Assembly (NCBI GenBank): GCA_965249595.1
Contig: OZ252242.1
Span: 1,718,158 to 1,782,157 of the forward strand
DNA from: Chloroflexota bacterium
GTDB taxonomy: Bacteria; Chloroflexota; UBA11872; VXNJ01
Direction: 5' to 3'
DNA length: 64,000 bases
The translations under genes were made by a program, and so were the position numbers. Below are positions 36,619-52,422 of the stretch, piece by piece. The notes beneath the pieces were generated by a model that ran no database searches, had not been told where the DNA came from, and saw nothing but the letters and a program-made list of their open reading frames with translations. The first letter of the stretch is position 1. The number at the start of each line of letters is the position of its first letter.

Positions 36619-37128
36619 TTACCCGCGAATTTTTTCCAAAGCCTCCTGGGCCAACTCTTTGAGATCCGGAATATTCTGGCGGACCCATTCGATTTTTGAA
36701 ACTGCCCTTGATTCGTGAAATTCGCCAAGCTGCCAAATCACGACGTAGGCATAGGAGGGATAGTGGGGTACCTTGGGCCCGAACACCGGATGGTAGTCGG
36801 CGGCATGGATCGTCTCGACCCGGGTAAGCAAATCCAGCAGGTGCATCCTAATTTCCTCTGTATCGGGAGATTCTTTCCAAACTACCCGTACGTAGGAAAG
36901 CCCTGAGGCAATTTCAGCCGTCAATATGGGGCCGATCGGGACCGGATCCTTTTCCGGAGTTCGAAATTGGTGATTTAGGCAATATGTGTAGCCGGGATCC
37001 TCGATTGCCTGATTTCGGATTTCGCAATAATGAGGGCCGCGCGGCACGCGTTCGGCATGCTCACCCTGATCACGATTGGCGCGATTTGACCAACACGTGG
37101 CGCAATTGTCGGATCCGCCATTGGGCAT
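36619..37128 (-). CDS. Hypothetical protein with N-terminal Cys/His cluster (C-x2-C...H-Y-C...C-L-N-H)
   Basis: Long ORF with codon bias like its neighbours; no recognisable family. Confidence 0.4.
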   Translation of the reverse strand: MPNGGSDNCATCWSNRANRDQGEHAERVPRGPHYCEIRNQAIEDPGYTYCLNHQFRTPEKDPVPIGPILTAEIASGLSYVRVVWKESPDTEEIRMHLLDLLTRVETIHAADYHPVFGPKVPHYPSYAYVVIWQLGEFHESRAVSKIEWVRQNIPDLKELAQEALEKIRG

Positions 37129-37395: not shown

Positions 37396-40300
37396 CTAGT
37401 CATTTACCGGAACGGGCACCAGATAAACATCGTAAGCGGCATCAGTTCCCAACGGCTCGGCGGCGTGAAACGGATCGTGATCGGCGAAATCGGGAACCAG
37501 TTGATCTCTGAGAATGTCACCCAACAGGGCGAGTTTTACCGGCAGCGGATCGCCTGGATGATATTCAAACACCGCCGCCTGGAAATACTGGCGGGTGAAT
37601 CCATAGGTCGTGCCCTCCGCGTGCAGTCTGCCGTCAAGACGCACATCAACCCTGGCATCGGTTTTGGGAAAGCCGAATGCACCCACTCCGCCCAGGTCGT
37701 AGAAGAAAGCTGCGAAGCCAACTTCGGCTCCTTCTATTGAGAAATCCGATACCTTGTGACCCCAGGGACCAAACGGCTCTCCCGGGTTGGGGTTTAAAAT
37801 CCCGGGCTCGGTACCCTGGTCCAAAGAGCCACCTACACCACCGCCGAGAGAGTCCCAGCCCAATCGGCGTTCCACCAGCCAGCCCTGACCGACGTTGTGG
37901 AAATCGACTACACCGCGCTGATAGAACTGGGTTAAGGTGCCGGTTTCCAAAACCAGGACCTCAGAGGTTGGATAACCCCAGCGATCCAATTTTCCGGTGG
38001 CTTCATAGTGCGCCAGGAAGTTAGCCTGCACGACAAGGCCATTGTCAAGCGTTACTGTCAGGTTTGGAATGTTGTGGAGCAGGTCGCTTTTGCCCGGTGC
38101 CTGCACCGAGAGGCTGACGGCCACTTCAACGGCGTGGGCAAATTCGGGAAGGATCGGATCCGGCGGGACGATCCGCCGCCCACCGCCGCCTCCACCGCCG
38201 CCGCTTCTGCTGACGCTGCGGCGCAGCGATGGTCTACCGGATTGAGAGGGCGACCAGGCGCCGACGCCAGAAGAGTTTTCGGCCCGGATCTGCAGCTCAT
38301 AGTCGCTGTCGTTGTCAAGTGCCGGGAGAATAACCTCTAGGCGACGATCGCCAATCGCCCAGATACTTGACATCAGCGTCCAGGAACCTGGAACATCGGG
38401 CGCGCTGGCGAATTTGTGGCGAAGGTCATAGGACTCGACCCGGGCGCCGCCGTCGGAGGATGGCGGCCGCCAAACGACGGTAAGGAACTGATCTCCCGCC
38501 GTCGCGCTGGTGATATTCGGTGCGGTTGGCCGCTGCACAATGGTGGTTCCGGTCACCGGCTCAGACCGTTCGCCGGCGCCGACCGAATTGCGCGCCCTTA
38601 ACTCCACGTTGTAGCTGATCCCGTCAGCCAGCCCGAGGAGCGAGTACTCAAGGCTGCCACCGGTCCAGATACTTCGAACTTCGGTCCAAGAGCTTGCTTG
38701 GTCCGGATCTTCATTTTTCTTATAGCGAAGGCCGTAAGCTGTTATCGCGCTCCCGCCAGGATCCGTAGGGCTCTGCCAGCTGATCATCAATGTGCGAATT
38801 CCACCGATTACCGATTGGATAGCGGGGGGCCCGGGGACGGATATCGGTGTTCCGTCGCCAGATTCCGACCAACCACCGGAGCCGGCGATGTTGACGGCGC
38901 TAATTTGTACGTCGTAACCAGTCCCGTTGGCTAGACCACCCAGGGAATAGGCGAGGCGTCTACCGGACCAGACATCTTGAATTTGCGTCCACGATCCGGA
39001 AACATCAGGGGCGAGGCTTCTCTTGTGGCGAAGGTGGTAGGTGGCTATCTCAGCCCCGCCGTCGTCAATCGGCCTTTGCCAGCTGACGATCAAAGTGCGG
39101 TTGCCAACTTCGACCGCACTAACGGTTGGAATGCCCGGTATTACTACCGGAGTTCCGGAACGCGTTGAGGACCATGGTCCGGGATCCAGCTGAGAATCGG
39201 CGCGCACCTGGAGATCGTAGGACGTGCCGTTGGCCAACCCGGACAGTGAATACTGTCGGTTCCCGCCGGACAAGATGCCGATAACTGTGGTCCACGAACT
39301 TGGGCGGTCCGGATTCCGGCTTCTCTTGTGGCGAAGATCGTAATTGGTAATTGGTGACCCGCCGTCGTCCGTAGGGCTGAGCCATTCGACGGTCAATTCC
39401 CTGTCGTCAGCGGAAATAGTTCGGATAACCGGTTTTCGTGCATTGTCATTGGGCACGCCGCTGCGAGGACTCGACCAGCTTCCGCCGCCCGCCGCATTTA
39501 CTGCTCTGACCTGCACGTCATAGGGTGTGTCATTGAGCAATCCGGATAGTGAGTATTCGAGATTGCCGCCGGACCAGATATCGAGCGCCTCTGTCCAGGA
39601 GCCTGGCTCATCCGGATCACTGCTCCGCTTTCGACGAAGATCATAGCCGGTTACGACAGCCCCGCCGGTGGCTGATGGGCGTTGCCAGCTAATGATGAGT
39701 CCCTGGAAATAAGAGACGACTTCAGTGACATTAGGGCGCCCCGGCACCGTCCTGGGGGTAGCGTCACTGGACGTTGACCAGACACCTTCGCCTTCGGCAT
39801 TTACCGCTCTGATTTGAATGTCGTAGGCAGTTCCATTGCTCAGCCCGGAAGAAATCGAAAAATTGAGATTGCCGCCGCTCCAAAAACCCGAAACCAGGGT
39901 CCAGGAACCGGGCACGTCGGGGTCAAGGCTTCTTTTGCGTTGCAGGTCGTAGCCGGTAATTTCAGCGCCGCCGTTATCGCTTGGCTGATTCCAGTACACC
40001 GACAATTCCCGCGGTCCGGGTTCGATTTGGCTGATCGTTGGTGACCCGGGAACCGTTCTCGGGATACCGTTAGCGGATGTCGACCAAGCGCTGGCGCCAG
40101 CGGAGTTGACCGCCCGGACTTGGACGTCATAGGTAATTCCGTTGTCTATCCCGGTGGAAATCAGGTAGCTACGTTCGCGGATCGGCCAGACCGCAATGAT
40201 TTCAGTCCAGTTTCGATTCAGATCGGGAGCGCTGCCGCGCTTGTGCCGAAGGTCATAGCCGGTAATTTCAGCGCCGCCGTTAGCACCCGGGGGATCCCAA

Positions 40301-43300
40301 AAAACCTTCAGTTTTAGCGGGCCAGGATCAATTTTGCTGATGTTGGGTTCACCCGGGACTGTCCTGGGGGTACCGGTCCGGGGCGCGGACCAGGCGCCGT
40401 CGCCGCCGGCATTGACGGCCCTGATTTGCACATCGTAGGCAATCGAATTTTCTAGTCCGGAGACGGTGTATTCAAATCGACCTCCGGCCGATATCCGATC
40501 AATTAGGGTCCACGAGCCTTCAACGTTTGGGTCGCTGCTTTTCTTGTGGCGGAGGTCAAAGCTGGTAATCGATGCGCCGCCGTTTTGCGAGGGACTTTGC
40601 CAGCTGACGGTCAGCAAATTAACACCGGCCTCAACGTCGACAATCACGGCCGCTCCGGGTACCGTCCTGGGTGTGCCGTTGCGTGAAAGAGACCAGACGC
40701 CGTAATTAACTGCCGTGGCCGCCCTGATTTGAATGTTATAACTGGTCCCGTTTTCCAACCCGTAGACGGTGGCCTCGAGATCACCGCTCGACCAGGTCCT
40801 CAACTCCTCGGTCCAGGAACTCCCCTGGTCTGGGTCGGCACTCTTCTTGTGGCGAATGTCATAGTGAGTGATCTCGCCACCACCAACGTCGGTTGGGCGT
40901 TCCCAGAAAACTTTTAATTGCCGTGGATCGGGATCGATTGCGCTGATAATTGGCGCCCCCGGCGGTTTTTGCGGCATAGCGCTAAACGAAGTCGACCATG
41001 CGCCAAAGCCGGCGGGATTGACCGCCCTAACCTGTAGGTCATAACCGGTCCCGTTATCCAAGCCGGCAACGATGGCTTCGAGGTCGCCGTTCGACCAGAT
41101 GCCGAGATCCTCAGTCCAGGAACTCTCCTGGTCCGGATCGGCGCTCTTCTTGTGGCGAAGGTCGTAACTGGTGACCGCAGCACCCCCATTAAAAGACGGT
41201 CGCCGCCAGCTGATCGTCAGCGTGCCGTCTCCCGGTTTTGCCTGCCTGATGGTCGGTGCTCCAGGGATAGTTCGCGGCGTACCGATTCGGCTGTCTGACC
41301 AATCACCGCGGCCGGCGGCATTGACCGCTAGTATCCCCACCCAATACGATTCGCCGTTTTCAAGGCCAGTCAATACCAGGGCGAGTTTTGCGTCGTCGCC
41401 GGCGGTCCAAGCAGCCTGCAGTTCCCGCCAAGATCCGGCGACATCGGGGTCAATGCCTTTCGATAGACGCAGGTCATATGAAGTTATCGGGGCGCCGCCA
41501 TCGTTTGCGGGCACCGACCAGATGACGGTCAATCTGCCGTCACCGGGCAGCAAGGGGGAAAGCACGGGCTCGCTCGGGTAGGTATACGGCGTGCCCGTCT
41601 TTGTCTCTGACCAGGGTCCCGGGCCAACCGAATTTACCCCTCGCACCTGAGCTTCATAGCTATCGCCGCCCGCCAGCGGAGCGACGATGTGATTCGACCG
41701 ATAGCCGGCAATATCCTTTTCAATTACCCAATCGGAATCTTGCCGACCGGAGAAAAGACTTCGACTCCGAACTTCCCAATAATCTACCGGCGCCGTATCT
41801 TCGTCGGAATATTCCCAACTGACCTCCAGCGAAGATTGAGCCGGGGCGACTTTAAATTCGATAGCGATTGATGGAGGATCGATCGGAACCCCTTGGTCTT
41901 CAATCCAAAGGCCCGCACCGGCAATGTTTAACGCCCTGATTTGGACGTCGTATTTGGTGCCGTAGTCCAGTCCAGCAATCTCGTATTTGAGATCGCCGCC
42001 GGCCCAAAAGTTAAAAACTTCAACCCAGGCGTCTGCCGGATTGGGATCTTCGTTGTCCCGATAACGCAGATCGTAACCGGAAACCGCCGAGCCGCCATTG
42101 TCAAGCGGGACGGTCCAGCTGAGTTGCAGCAGTTTGATGCCGGGCTTTATCGAGATGCTCGCCGGCAAGCCCGGGGTAGTGCGAGGGGTTCCTGATGTCG
42201 CGTCGGACCAGCGGCCAATTACAGCCCCGCTGACGGCACGTATTGACACATCGTATTCGTGTCCGTTGGTTAGTCCGGTGATGGCATATTCGGTGCTCCC
42301 AGAACTCCAAATCCCATTGCGCACGGACCAGGACCCGGTCAGGTCAGGGTCACTACTAAATTTGTGGCGCGAATCAAACCTGGTAACCGTGGGGCCACCC
42401 GCTCCCGGCGTCCATTGCACGGTCAAATTGCCGGCTCCGCCGGTTAACGAATCGATGGTTGGTGAACCGGGGGCATTTTTTGGAGTTCTGCTCAACGTGA
42501 ACGACCACCCGCCGCCGCCAGCGGCGTTTGCCGCCTGGAGTTGGACATCATAGGAAATGTCGTTGGTCAGATTGGATATGTCGTGCCTAAAGATTTTGGG
42601 GCGATGTCCCCGGCGTTGTCAACCGGAGTCCAGCGGGAATCCGCCTTGTCGGTGGCGTCACTGCGGATGTAACGCAGGTTGTAGGCGGTAATCGGCGATC
42701 CACCGGTGTCGGTGAGTTCGGCCCAGATCACCTCGATACTCTGATCAAAGCCACTGGCCGCGGTGATGCTAGGAGTTCCGGGCGCTCTTCGCGGCGATTC
42801 CCGTCTGACCAGGGACCAAAGCCCGGACCCATTGGTGTTTTGAGCGCGAATTTGGAAGTCGTATTCGATGCCATTGGTCAAACCGCTGCTGACGGTGTGG
42901 GTGAGGGCGCCGCTCGACCAAATCGATGCTTCAACGGTCCATTCGTCATCGGCCCGTTTTTCGGCATCGGCCCTTATGAATCGCAGGTCGTAGGTTGTAA
43001 CCGGCGATCCACCGGTAACCGTCGGGGCTTGCCAGGTCACGGTCAGCGATCCGTCGCCGGGCGTGGCCACAGTGATCGTCGGGGACCGCGGAACCGGCGC
43101 GGGGGTGCCCGTCTGAGACTCCGACCATGGACCGTCGCTGTTGAGATTGACCGCTCGAATTTGAACATCGTATTCGATGGTGTTGACAAGCCCGGTCAGT
43201 AGATAACGCCGCGCTCCAGAACTCCAGATAATGCTTCCCTCAGTCCAGTTGCCATCCACGCTCTCGTCGGCATCGGTCCGGATGTGGCGGATATCGTAGG

Positions 43301-46300
43301 TGAGGATTTCCGATTCATGGTCCAATGGCGAGGGGGTCCACTCGACACTCAGCGCGGTGTCAGTCGCGGCCACCGAGTTGATCGTGGGCGTTCCAAGCGC
43401 CCGTTGGTGTCCGCGGGCGATGATCGCCCAGGAATTGAGCTAGCCGACGGTCCCTCTCCGGTTGTCGGTTATGCGCAGCGTCCAGTCCCCGGTCGGGTCT
43501 TCGCCCAGGTGGCGCGAAGTTCCAAAGTGAAATCGTCCCGACCACGAATATCCGGGTGAATTCAAATAGGTGGAAAGAACGGATATTGTCCCCGACGGCG
43601 ACTCCAGCTCGATGCGCAAATCGCGCGCCGAGCCATGTGAAAAGTCGATCGGCACCTCGATGTGTTCGACGAATGAGATTCCGTCCGGAACGGTGAGGGT
43701 GCTGCCGAGCGTATTCGTGCCCCGGGATGTTCGATCGGGAATTCGCAGATCCAGGCCGCCCGATTTGGCCTCCGCTTTTTCCAGTGGCGGGAGTTTGGTC
43801 CAGCCGGCGGCCATTTCGACAGCCGCCGCCGCATCAACCACTCCGAACCCGTAGGCGTGGTTGAAGGAGTACTTTTCTGAATCCTGTCGATACTTCGGGG
43901 CCCCTGCCTCCCAGCCGGAGTTGCGCGGGTCATTCTTGCGGGCCGAACCGGCCAGTATCAATTTGACGTCGCGCCAGGTGAGATCGCTCTTGGCCTTGCG
44001 AATCAGGGCGGCCACTCCGGATACCATCGGCGTTGACGCCGACGTGCCGCCGAAGCTGTCGCGATAGCGATCGAAGTTGTCGATGGTCGTAATTCCCCGC
44101 GCGCCTACGCGCCGGGAATCATTGGACGGTGCGCAGACCCACAGGTTGGAACCGGATTCGGAATAGTTGACCTGTTTTCCCTGGTCGGTGACCGCACAGG
44201 CCGCTACGACTCCGTAGAAGCTCGCCGTCTCGTCCAGATTCGAATAGTCGCCTTCCCTCCGCCCATTGCCGCCGGCAAAGACGTAGACCGTACCCTTTCC
44301 GCCGGCACCGTCGGCCAACCCGGCTTCGACCCCCAATTTCCACGGCAGGGATTGGGTTTTCAAACCCGGCCTGTCACTTCCGCCCCAACTGTTGTTCGAC
44401 ACATCGGTAACCTCGCGCTCGGTCGACATCGCTATCCCCTTGTTCACGTCGGTGGCCGAAAGGAGCAAATTGAATCCGTAGATGGTAGCCCGTGGAGCTA
44501 CGCCGCGGACGCCTAAATCGTTGTCGCGGGCGGCTATGATGCCGGCGACTCCGGTGCCGTGATTTGCAGTATCCCGGTGGACATCATCGCGATTCCCAAA
44601 GTCAAGATTTCGGCTCGCTTCGACGTTATCGATCAGGTCTTCGTGGGAATGATCGAGTCCGTTGTCGACCACCGCCACCCGAATTCCTTCGCCCATGTTG
44701 GAACCCCACACGCCGGAGACATTTATGTCTTCACCTGCGGTTGCGCCGTCGCGGCCTTGGTTATTCAGGTGCCACTGGCAGCCGTAAAGGTCGTCATCGT
44801 AGGCGGTTGCGATTGCGCTGCAATCAGTGATAAAGGACTCGTAGGCGGTATTGCGCCGCAGGGTAAACGAATACTGAGTGTTAAACGTGACCAGCGTTGA
44901 GGGCCTGGCGACAATCAGCGAAGTGACCCGATAAAAATAGGTGCCCGGATCCAGTCGGTAGGCGAAACCATCTCCCGGGACCAGGTTCCCGCTTACGTCA
45001 AAAACTCTGTAGTCGAGCACGGGTAAGAAGTCACTGCCAATCGCGAACGCGACTTCGGAGGTCTGCGTCAGCGCGAATTCATATAAGTCGAAATCATCAA
45101 ATCCTGATATATCGGCGGAAACTTTTCGATTGAAACTGAGTGGAACCGCCGATCCAGACGGGTCAAAATTCTCCGGCGTGCGATCGAGGTGTAGCGTGTA
45201 ACTGCCGCCGCGCGAACCCGAAAGTTCAACTTTTATGTAATAGGTTCCCGGTGCCAAGTCGGCGCGGATATGGAAGTTGTTGGTAATGCGCTGAAAGCCC
45301 CAAGTATCGTTGCTGTCAATCCCGGTGCCGTCCTGCCTTTGCAGGGCACCGACGGTGTTCAAAACTCCTGTCGTGTAAGCGCGAATATCGGTTGCCTCGG
45401 TTAATTCAAACTCGAAGAAATCAATGTCGTCGCCATCGAAGGCGATTTCCTCAATCTCCTCACCGATCCCGATCGTGGTGGCAGTGGCGCGGCTGCCGCC
45501 GGCGTCAACGACGGTCTCGGCATGCAAGGTGTAGGGACCGCCGTTGCCGATCCTAGAAGTGGACTGATAGGCCGAAACGGCAACGTAGTAGATCCCGGCC
45601 GCAAGTGATCGCCGAATCAGGAAATTTAGCCCCTCGGACTCCAGCACGTGGTCATCGTTGGCTTCCAGCAAATCCTCGTCTTCAGCAAACAGGTGCCCGA
45701 CGGTGTCAGTTCGTCCGGTTGTGTAAATGAGCACATCGGTGGCGGACGGCAGCGTCAGTTGGTATGTGTCGACATCGGTACCGGGAAAGATCTGCTCGTC
45801 CACCGATCCATCAAGGGGCAGCGTGCCGGCGGTGGCGATGGTGTTGCCCGGCTCCGTCCACAGAGCGACACTCAGTTGATAGGACCCGGTCAGGGCATTT
45901 ACGCCATCGCGATAAGAGCGAACTTTGACGTAATAGGTTCCCGCGTCGAGTCGCGCGTTGATCTGGAAATTGAGTAAGCTGGCGAAGAAGTCGATGTCAT
46001 CGGACGCCGAAATCTCGTTGCCGTCACTGTCTTGCAGCTGCCCGACGGTGTCCAGGTTGCCGGTCGTGTAAATGTCAACGCTCGTTGGATCGCTAAGGAC
46101 AAGGCGGAAGAAATCTTCATCGGAACCAGGGTCGATGCTGCCGGCCAACGGCGTGCCCACGCTGATTGCCGTGGCCGTGGCCCGATCATTGCCGTGATCA
46201 TCGATGGTCAATTGACCAGTCGCGGCGCCGGAGGAGACGAGCAGGCCGGCAACTGCGGCAATCGCGGCCAGCAGACCACCAATATTGCGACGGTTACTTG

Positions 46301-46352
46301 AAATCGGCCACATTCCCGGGGTGGCCGGCATTCGAACGTGGTCAGTTGGCAA
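37396..46352 (-). pseudogene. Giant cell-surface S8 subtilase / PPC x4 / P-domain / ~18 FN3 / LGFP-like protein, broken by in-frame TAG (43440-42) and a frameshift (42570-42618)
   Basis: Signal/TM anchor, four PPC-like domains, catalytic triad D (VVDNGLDHSH), H (HGTGVAGII), S (GTSASTPMVSG), and a proprotein-convertase P-domain. ORFs 43440-46352 and 42567-43373 are in-frame, separated by TAG plus 22 sense codons (..GTPTINSVAATDTALSVEWTP). The 1699-aa ORF frame is open upstream to 42619 with FN3 sequence (..ISYDVQLQAANAAGGGGWS). The C-terminus has (L/W)G(F/Y)P...Q.(F/Y)Q.G repeats. Confidence 0.65.
37900..43400 (-). repeat. Tandem array of ~18 fibronectin type-III coding repeats (~285 nt period)
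   Basis: Recurrent SYDLRHK.S.DPD..SW......W..G.LEY...GL.NGT.YD.Q.RA.N..G.G.WS....GTPRTVPG.P.I. Confidence 0.7.
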
Positions 46353-46526
46353 TCTGGCTACCGAACCCGGCGTTTGACAACGTCAACCATCCATCGGCTG
46401 ATCAAGTCGTCGGCGGGCAAACAAAGCGTCGGCTAAGCCCCGCTCGATCCGGGCCAACGAATCGCCCATCTATGTCCCCGGCGATCTCGACGGTTGCATG
46501 GCCGGGGCGGAGTCGCGAGATGTCCT

Positions 46527-47309
46527 TCACTTAGTCTCAGCTTCGCTCAACCAATTGGGACTGGCGTTGACCACCCCGTTCTGCCCGGCCAGGGCATTGG
46601 CCAACTCGAGCGACGCGAATCCCGGCGCGGTGCTTACCAGGAAGCCGTTGTCGATAAAGTCAAGATCCGAAACTTGGCTTGCCTTTATCGCGTTGCTGGA
46701 AAAAAATCTGTTGACGCGGGCTCGGTCCCAAGCGGGGTTAAGAACGACCAGCACCCCGCCTGGCAGCGTCATCAGACCGCCGGAACTTGATCTAAACACC
46801 GGTTCGGGCTCGGGTTCTTCTTCATCGCTTTGGGTGTTGGCAGTCGACCGGGTACTGACAGCCGACCCGGGAAGGGAATCGCCGGGTGCGCTGATTTCCG
46901 GCTTGGCGCCAGGGTTTCCGAGATCGGTCTGTGCCTCCATGTCTTCCACCAACTCCACTTGGAGATCGCGATCTCCGTCCTGCCAGGTGTAGGTCTCATC
47001 CGAACGCCTGGCCACGGTCGTGGTCGGAACCTTTTCGATCGCCGGCGTGGCGGTCGGTTTGGGTGGATCGACCACGACCGTTGGCTCGGTTTCCGATGCC
47101 GGCTGATTGCGCGGGTCGGCAGGCGCAGGCGACAAAGCTGAATCTGCAGATTCAGCAAATTTCTCTCTGGCGACCACATCCGAGTCCACGCCGAAGGGAT
47201 TGATCAATGCCAATGAACCGACGGTCAATAGTCCCAATGCCGCAACGACGACCACCATCGCTGAAAACCAGCGGGTACCGGCACGCGAAAAGACGCTTTT
47301 TAATGTCAT
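46527..47309 (-). CDS. Membrane-anchored protein with C-terminal subtilisin-propeptide (inhibitor I9)-like domain (tentative)
   Basis: N-terminal TM (WFSAMVVVVAALGLLTVGSLAL) and a low-complexity Pro/Thr/Glu linker. C-terminal TYTWQDGDRDLQVELVE...GFLVSTAPGFASLELANALAGQNGVVNASPNW resembles the I9 pattern (YIV..K ... GFaa.ls.eal..L...p.V.yvepD). Sits 175 nt upstream of the S8 gene on the same strand. Confidence 0.45.
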   Translation of the reverse strand: MTLKSVFSRAGTRWFSAMVVVVAALGLLTVGSLALINPFGVDSDVVAREKFAESADSALSPAPADPRNQPASETEPTVVVDPPKPTATPAIEKVPTTTVARRSDETYTWQDGDRDLQVELVEDMEAQTDLGNPGAKPEISAPGDSLPGSAVSTRSTANTQSDEEEPEPEPVFRSSSGGLMTLPGGVLVVLNPAWDRARVNRFFSSNAIKASQVSDLDFIDNGFLVSTAPGFASLELANALAGQNGVVNASPNWLSEAETK

Positions 47310-51774: not shown

Positions 51775-52422
51775 TTAGTACATGTGCTGCATGGCAGCGG
51801 CGACCGAGTATTCGATATCGCGGATCGCCTGGGTCATCGCCCGACCGATGAGATCGAGCTTGCGGACCTGATCGATGCGAGGGGTCGCCGCGCCGAGTTC
51901 GCGGGTAGAGAGCAGTTCATGGAATATTCCGCAGGCATCGGCCAGGCAGATGATCATCACATCGCGCGGGTGCGGGATCTGTTCGCTGAATAGGACCTCC
52001 ATGATCCGCAGTTTCACCTCACGCTCGGCCTTACCGTCGATCAGCGGGTAGCGCCGAGACCTAAACACCCAGAGGAAGCGATCGTCCAGAGCTTCCAGGA
52101 TTCCGCCCGCCACCAGACGATTCAGTGCCGTTTCGCGGATTGAATCGGCGTTGTCGGCTGTTCGCTCGACCCAGAAGCGGGTGTCATGCTGGCCTCCGGC
52201 GGCAATATCGGCCAGCGTCGGGTCAAGCAGGTCATCGCCCACCGGTTCGTCATTGACCAAAACCAGATGCTCAAGGTCAGTATCGATGCGGTTTTCCAGG
52301 GCTAAGTCCATCAAGACACCGCCGGCGATGGCGTACTTGCGCGACAGGTCAGAAACATTGACAAACCGTCCGTCGTCGTCTCTAAGCAGAAGAAGAAGGA
52401 TTTCCTCAACGAATCTGAGCAT
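51775..52422 (-). CDS. GPP34/GOLPH3-family protein
   Basis: N-terminal EEILLLLLRDDDGRF...YAIAGGVLMDLALENRI pattern. Confidence 0.55.
   Translation of the reverse strand: MLRFVEEILLLLLRDDDGRFVNVSDLSRKYAIAGGVLMDLALENRIDTDLEHLVLVNDEPVGDDLLDPTLADIAAGGQHDTRFWVERTADNADSIRETALNRLVAGGILEALDDRFLWVFRSRRYPLIDGKAEREVKLRIMEVLFSEQIPHPRDVMIICLADACGIFHELLSTRELGAATPRIDQVRKLDLIGRAMTQAIRDIEYSVAAAMQHMY

Follow-up and report, generated by a model that had tools for sequence, protein, structure and literature searches.

Subtilases are the textbook case of enzymes whose folding depends on an intramolecular chaperone. To our knowledge, ASP of Aeromonas sobria with its partner ORF2 is the only characterised natural case in which a subtilase chaperone is a separate protein. 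The survey of Falkenberg et al. 2022 names just two subtilase holotypes without a propeptide, and AspA is one of them (PMC9549277). ASP is a kexin-like subtilase whose maturation needs ORF2, the product of the adjacent gene; the C-terminal Gln-Pro-Lys of ORF2 contacts the ASP catalytic centre, and ORF2 inhibits ASP with a half-maximal inhibitory concentration (IC50) of ~84 nM (PMC5638518). Here we describe a 64,000-nucleotide stretch of a Chloroflexota genome (assembly GCA_965249595.1, contig OZ252242.1; the whole stretch is referred to as the window) in which a 260-aa open reading frame (ORF) with an ATG start, on the minus strand at 46527..47309, lies directly ahead of a subtilase gene. We propose that the small protein, whose family is called FAM below, is a membrane-tethered, trans-acting propeptide of the furin/kexin-like subtilase encoded directly downstream, a reading to which we give a probability of about 0.68. 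We infer this function from the fold, from synteny, from natural fusions that place the domain at the propeptide position and from the conservation of a tail with a near-invariant C-terminal Lys or Arg; the same evidence supports the proposal of an earlier, sequence-only reading of this DNA that the gene could encode a trans-acting foldase or inhibitor.

The partner protease of the window shows three PPC domains in Pfam, followed by Peptidase_S8 (residues 554-837, 2e-39) and P_proprotein (residues 895-969, 1e-13). Neither Inhibitor_I9 nor S8_pro-domain was found in this 970-aa protein in the Pfam scan, even at E<=1, and the sequence-only reading was therefore right that an S8 protease with PPC domains and no I9 propeptide lies downstream. 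Over the catalytic domain and P-domain, furin (1.1e-44), kexin (1.2e-43) and then A. sobria ASP (6.3e-37) are its closest solved relatives. With a D-H-S domain followed by a P-domain, and with furin and kexin as its top matches in the PDB, the enzyme belongs to the S8B (kexin/furin) subfamily. The catalytic Asp, His and Ser are present in the window protease by sequence comparison, and the triad is kept in 68-69 of 70 partner proteases from related loci. In an HMMER alignment to furin, Asp258 and Asp306 of furin, which form the S1 pocket that binds a P1 Arg or Lys, are each matched by an Asp in the window protease; the acidic residues of the furin S2 and S4 sites are not kept in this alignment. 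In the split proteases, a search of the region that links the PPC repeats to the catalytic domain turned up no conserved basic processing site.

The two genes are tightly coupled. As the sequence-only reading had it, FAM lies just upstream of the protease on the same strand, the protease gene starting 174 nt downstream of the FAM stop. Upstream of the FAM gene there is a terminator-like site, after an unrelated alpha/beta-hydrolase gene. A scan of species-representative genomes gave 293 FAM matches, and the loci of the best 80 of these, nearly all of them from metagenome-assembled genomes (MAGs) of Dehalococcoidia, were fetched for synteny. In all 76 loci with enough downstream DNA (76/76), FAM stands directly before a [FN3]-PPC-S8-P-domain-FN3 gene on the same strand, so that the gene pair, whose co-conservation the sequence-only reading had named as a check on its proposal, is indeed conserved together with an orthologous protease. 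In the other four of the 80 loci the sequence breaks off where the contig or locus ends or is disrupted by an inserted IS110 element, and PPC/FN3 matches still begin right after FAM. The distance from the FAM stop to the first possible protease start is mostly -4 to +80 nt in related loci, with a 4-nt overlap in 13 of them; these short gaps and stop/start overlaps point to co-translation of FAM and protease in an operon.

Could the two genes be a single propeptide-containing protease gene that came apart through an error in sequencing or through a mutation that made it a pseudogene? Frame breaks do occur in such loci: further along the same cluster the frame is interrupted by a stop codon and by a frameshift, and the S8 gene is broken in several related long-read MAG loci. 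Against this, the split between FAM and protease falls at the identical place in ~80 loci of different genomes, the stop right after the terminal Lys or Arg of FAM is conserved (TGA in 73/83) and frequently overlaps the next start, and the window protease carries a signal peptide of its own downstream of the split, in addition to the spacer of 174 nt. We rejected the sequencing-error version because the stop position is conserved across ~80 loci, and a split gene of either origin has, in our judgement, a negligible chance of being the explanation.

The small protein itself is built as the sequence-only reading described it at its N-terminal end, since ORF call, hydropathy and composition bear out a transmembrane (TM) anchor followed by a stalk. 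The best 19-mer hydropathy (mean Kyte-Doolittle) is 2.6, at residues 18-36, and the positive residues K4, R9 and R13 ahead of this segment suggest, from the positive-inside rule, an N-in orientation with the C-terminal domain outside. The C-terminal part is conserved, including the motifs YTWQDGD... and GFLVSTAPGFASLELANALAGQNGVVNASPNW. The conserved segment had been estimated at ~90 aa; the actual unit is ~155 aa (residues ~105-260) and consists of a beta subdomain and then an I9-like core. Within the beta subdomain (105-185) lie the YTWQDGDR hairpin, a variable acidic loop (~128-165) and the PVFRSxSGGLMTLPGG motif. The family alignment has the same layout throughout, with a variable N-terminus and a variable Pro/Thr/Ala-rich stalk ahead of the ~155-residue conserved module, in which the YTWQDGDR hairpin, a variable loop, PVFRSxSGGLMTLPGG and the core follow one another, the core closing with SPNW and seven residues. 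The N-terminus of the relatives carries a hydrophobic segment in 95/120 and a lipobox (e.g. LAGC) in 39/120.

In the AlphaFold2 (AF2) model, the FAM core is a confidently predicted beta-alpha-beta-beta-alpha-beta fold, and its closest structural match is the PC1/3 prodomain on furin. The tail has a low predicted local distance difference test (pLDDT) score in the isolated model, which fits a segment that orders upon binding. A Foldseek search of the PDB with the FAM model gave generic ferredoxin-like matches only (E>0.06), and the listed structures each cover at most about one domain's length; the extra N-terminal beta subdomain had no structural match. The I9-like character suggested by the sequence-only reading stands for fold and tail and does not extend to profiles, as described below. 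Neither of the two outcomes that this reading had named as its refutation, a structure unlike the I9/ferredoxin-like propeptide fold or orthologous proteases without the gene upstream, was observed.

The strongest argument for the proposal comes from natural fusions. In P0294-P0299, a TM anchor and an acidic stalk are followed by the FAM domain (..SPNWEREATPQ), ~35 residues and then DDPYYGCQWHL, the start of the catalytic domain, behind which come P-domain, FN3 and cadherin modules. The FAM domain of these proteins occupies the canonical furin/kexin prodomain position. Other fusions (P0134, P0269-P0284 and more) run FAM-PPC repeats-S8-P, with no signal peptide in between, and in the loci of two fused genes no separate FAM copy was present within 6 kb. 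Within this protease clade the FAM domain is either part of the protease chain, in cis, or a separate protein, in trans, which argues that it is the propeptide of the clade.

A second line of evidence is the C-terminal tail. In 79 of the 79 stand-alone proteins scored for tail length (those whose ORF ends <=3 residues from the match), the protein stops exactly 8 residues after the invariant Trp. Two further proteins, both Arg-ending, bring the set to 81, and the C-terminal residue is Lys (64) or Arg (14) in 78 of these. The tail consensus is W-x-[RT]-E-[VA]-[ET]-[TAP]-[KR]-stop, with Pro at P2, giving a Pro-Lys/Arg end (..TPK), in 18/79. Overlap of stop and start cannot explain the choice of Lys or Arg at the tail end. 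A tail of fixed length that ends in the P1 residue preferred by a furin-like S1 pocket would resemble a product-like propeptide that plugs the active site.

FAM is a large family without a Pfam or NCBIfam model, conserved far beyond chance. A word-indexed search found 202 homologues, all unnamed, with Chloroflexi as the sole source label that bears an organism name, and when 1.84 billion cluster representatives (50% identity) were searched exhaustively with the profile, 1062 matched at E<=1e-3 and, among these, 337 at E<=1e-30. The window protein had no match in Pfam at E<=1 and none in NCBIfam. Two copies per genome are common among the best 80 genomic matches, and the FAM/protease pairs have expanded as paralogues.

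We also made several side observations on the family and its partners. Ten genomes supply two separate loci each among the 80 fetched, and extra, partly degenerate propeptide-like copies lie near the main pair in L009 (1033-1467, minus strand), L013 (7791-8180, plus strand) and L030 (18420-18651). In P0121 (406 aa) and P0200/P0305/P0306/P0301, the domain is C-terminal to FN3 repeats or there are two matched stretches, and a few family members end in ..STLY or ..VVPY instead of Lys or Arg. An inserted IS110-family transposase in L001 (10001-12000) cuts short a cis-fused propeptide-like/PPC gene (P0021), and several other transposases lie in the region. Two full PPC-S8-P-domain modules stand in tandem in L005, L007, L012, L018 and L019 (~10.5-20.4 kb per locus), as well as in L014 and L076; in several tandem loci both modules share one 8-10 kb ORF, a giant double-protease protein with a single propeptide-like gene ahead of it. 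Fused and unfused proteases alike (P0276-P0300) carry varied C-terminal modules of adhesion type (FN3, cadherin, LRR, CARDB, Big_9). Such modules are typical of 'eukaryote-like' symbiont surface proteins, and MAG names such as Langseth suggest, as names, sponge or seamount sources.

Several observations weigh against a propeptide function. At the level of sequence, 38 diverse FAM members gave nothing in Pfam at E<=10, including PF05922 (Inhibitor_I9) and PF16470 (S8_pro-domain); hhalign gave a probability of 0.3% for the family profile against a small alignment of eight I9 and PC (proprotein convertase) prodomains, whose sequences are unverified; and the FAM profile matched nothing among all PDB chain sequences at E<=10, 3wqb and hence ORF2 included. 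By these searches, FAM would not be counted as a member of Pfam/MEROPS I9, and the ferredoxin-like fold is a common one. Among the partner proteases, the S1 Asp residues are not universal (Asp258-equivalent in 45/70, Asp306-equivalent in 42/70). The fused relatives with PPC repeats have FAM hundreds of residues from the catalytic domain, P1 is sometimes Gln in fused relatives, and the AF2 model of a natural cis fusion was poor (mean pLDDT 66), with tail and linker unplaced (pLDDT <50) and docking unsupported. Finally, the protease gene of the window is itself broken (Table 1), and the pair may be inactive in this genome, or the assembly wrong; the FAM gene is intact.

A different possibility is that FAM is a generic ferredoxin-like accessory, with no propeptide-like function, acting as a scaffold, as a partner that recruits substrates or binds cell wall or S-layer, or as a substrate of the protease. 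Such a role would agree with the lack of sequence similarity to prodomains in all searches and with the location of the most conserved motifs (LMTLPGG, YTWQDGD) in the extra beta subdomain, which is structurally unmatched. It leaves unexplained why the domain sits at the prodomain position in cis-fused relatives, why these S8B enzymes have no other propeptide and why the tail has a fixed length and ends in Lys or Arg, and we regard it as improbable.

If FAM is a trans-acting propeptide, the following sequence of events would be expected. Both proteins would be exported, the protease by way of its signal peptide, and FAM would stay anchored on its flexible stalk by the TM helix (a lipid anchor in many homologues). 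Outside the membrane, the FAM core would dock on the catalytic domain while the latter is still unfolded or has folded in part, and template its folding as cis propeptides do. The fixed-length tail would then occupy the substrate cleft as a cleavage product does, its terminal Lys or Arg (Lys260 in the window) in the acidic S1 pocket, and the protease would be kept inhibited until FAM is released, dissociated or degraded. That FAM physically binds the protease, acts as its foldase and inhibits it, and what becomes of the tethered protein, are here what we infer.

The membrane anchor raises a second possibility for what happens after docking. FAM may be a permanent, tethered latency or anchoring subunit instead of a transient foldase, staying bound like the prodomains of PCSK9 or CspB; it would hold the giant S8-FN3 surface protein at the membrane, inhibited or restricted in its substrates, and loss of FAM would release or activate the enzyme. 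The hydrophobic anchor (TM or lipobox) and long stalk are conserved in 95/120 homologues, apart from their N-terminal signal peptide no anchor was apparent in the partner proteases (there was no dedicated search), the cis-fused forms start with an identical TM-stalk-FAM module and the operon coupling is a tight 1:1, all of which would suit a lasting attachment. Fungal and plant stand-alone I9 proteins are also known as inhibitors and not as foldases. The present data fit transient and permanent binding alike. However, the closest precedent, ORF2, reportedly dissociates after export, as is said of it in work by Kobayashi et al. 2015, and a product-like tail with a preferred P1 residue usually means temporary inhibition followed by degradation. 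We consider a permanent subunit unlikely. Equally tentative is a more far-reaching speculation in which FAM would be a permanent, regulated membrane dock whose Lys/Arg plug in the active site keeps the giant S8-FN3/cadherin/LRR surface proteases of Dehalococcoidia, which are probably sponge-associated, latent and attached to the cell; the several paralogous pairs per genome would then be cognate locks and keys, and the split a switchable device for release and activation, beyond a folding aid.

Table 1. Positions of the gene pair and its parts in the window
Feature	Position	Strand	Basis or remark
FAM gene (260-aa stand-alone propeptide-like protein)	46527..47309	-	ORF call and conserved family; no Pfam/NCBIfam model
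N-terminal membrane anchor, residues ~15-37	47199..47267	-	hydropathy
Ala/Pro/Thr/Val/Glu-rich low-complexity stalk, residues ~38-104	46998..47198	-	alignment and composition; length and sequence vary among homologues
Conserved N-terminal beta subdomain, residues 105-185	46755..46997	-	
Propeptide-like core, beta-alpha-beta-beta-alpha-beta, residues 186-253	46551..46754	-	invariant SPNW at its end
Seven-residue C-terminal tail LSEAETK, last residue Lys260	46530..46550	-	proposed cleft occupant, Lys putatively in S1
TGA stop of FAM gene	46527-46529	-	
174-nt intergenic spacer	46353..46526	-	no terminator-like site on this strand
Partner protease gene, 970 aa	43440..46352	-	signal peptide, PPC-like repeats, S8B catalytic domain, P-domain; no propeptide of its own
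S8B catalytic domain	43842-44693	-	P-domain from 43670
FN3-repeat continuation of protease gene	37396..43439	-	split off by in-frame TAG (43440-43442) and frameshift near 42496-42566

Downstream of its catalytic domain, the window protease departs from its relatives. The in-frame TAG lies within the P-domain (..RRGTVG*LNSWAIIARG..), where homologues have GxxGTLRSW, and the frame runs on into FN3 repeats, as does the S8 ORF in related loci; the frameshift near 42.5 kb sets apart an FN3 ORF of 1699 aa. A single giant S8-P-FN3 gene (37396-46352) is thus interrupted at two points, either through pseudogenisation or through an error in the assembly. The last ~330 residues of the 1699-aa FN3 protein (37396-38400, minus strand), which follow a GGGGGGGRR Gly run, had no Pfam match, nor had the next ORF, which encodes 169 aa with Cys and His (36619-37128, minus strand). 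Other neighbours are unrelated to the pair: a luciferase-like monooxygenase, a gamma-glutamyltranspeptidase and a protein of the GPP34 (Golgi phosphoprotein 3) family (51775-52422, minus strand; 2e-40), a family named after a eukaryotic Golgi protein.

How does this pair compare with described systems? In outline it is like the lipase-specific foldases of Pseudomonas and Burkholderia (Lif/LipB), steric chaperones that are anchored in the membrane and share an operon with the single secreted enzyme they fold; these differ in their all-helical, unrelated fold and their lipase client, and Lif is not known to be an active-site-directed inhibitor. The eukaryotic stand-alone I9 proteins (Pleurotus POIA1, yeast PBI2, Arabidopsis SPI-1 and the Trichoderma I9 inhibitor) are soluble, unanchored and not operon partners, and their targets, unlike the proteases paired with FAM, have propeptides of their own. 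With the PC and subtilisin prodomains (PF16470, PF05922), FAM shares the beta-alpha-beta-beta-alpha-beta fold followed by a short tail, and fused FAM domains stand ~35 residues before the catalytic start DPxYxCQWHL. PC prodomains end in R-X-K/R-R, to which the basic last residue of FAM is similar. FAM differs from these prodomains in that it has no profile match to them, is a separate, membrane-tethered protein and carries an additional ~80-residue beta subdomain before the core.

The closest comparison is with ASP/ORF2 (PDB 3wqb). Both have a kexin-like S8B client without a cis propeptide, ASP being among the closest solved relatives of the window protease, and in both the partner comes from an adjacent gene in the same transcription unit, for which the evidence here is the pairing in every informative locus and the lack of a terminator between the window genes. 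ORF2 places its C-terminal Lys at the catalytic centre, and FAM ends in Lys or Arg, in some members in Pro-Lys/Arg, at the frequencies given above (78/81 and 18/79). An extra N-terminal part stands beside a propeptide-like body in both, in so far as ORF2 reportedly consists, in the description of Kobayashi et al. 2015, of such a body, a tail and an extra N-terminal extension. In contrast to ORF2, whose gene lies downstream of its protease, FAM is encoded upstream, is membrane-anchored (TM or lipoprotein) on a long stalk, and is hosted by Chloroflexota (Dehalococcoidia) rather than Gammaproteobacteria. It is paired with giant multidomain proteins of the PPC/FN3 type, its family includes cis-fused as well as split forms, and the PDB profile search (E<=10) found no sequence similarity to ORF2.

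The split arrangement that the sequence-only reading called unusual is therefore unusual but not without precedent, given ASP/ORF2 of Aeromonas (PMC5638518). If the proposed function is right, FAM would add a second, sequence-unrelated and far larger family to this precedent, with >1000 clusters at 50% identity and several copies per genome. Its coexisting cis-fused, PPC-interrupted and fully split forms would make a natural series from a propeptide to an independent, membrane-tethered gene. The work also offers a likely role for an unannotated protein family, for which a Pfam-style model would better the annotation of these genomes, and it indicates that the large S8-FN3 proteases on the surface of Dehalococcoidia symbionts would be specific for Lys/Arg at P1. 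Judged by these likenesses and differences, FAM can be seen as a fresh variation on the principle of the external chaperone known from ASP and ORF2.
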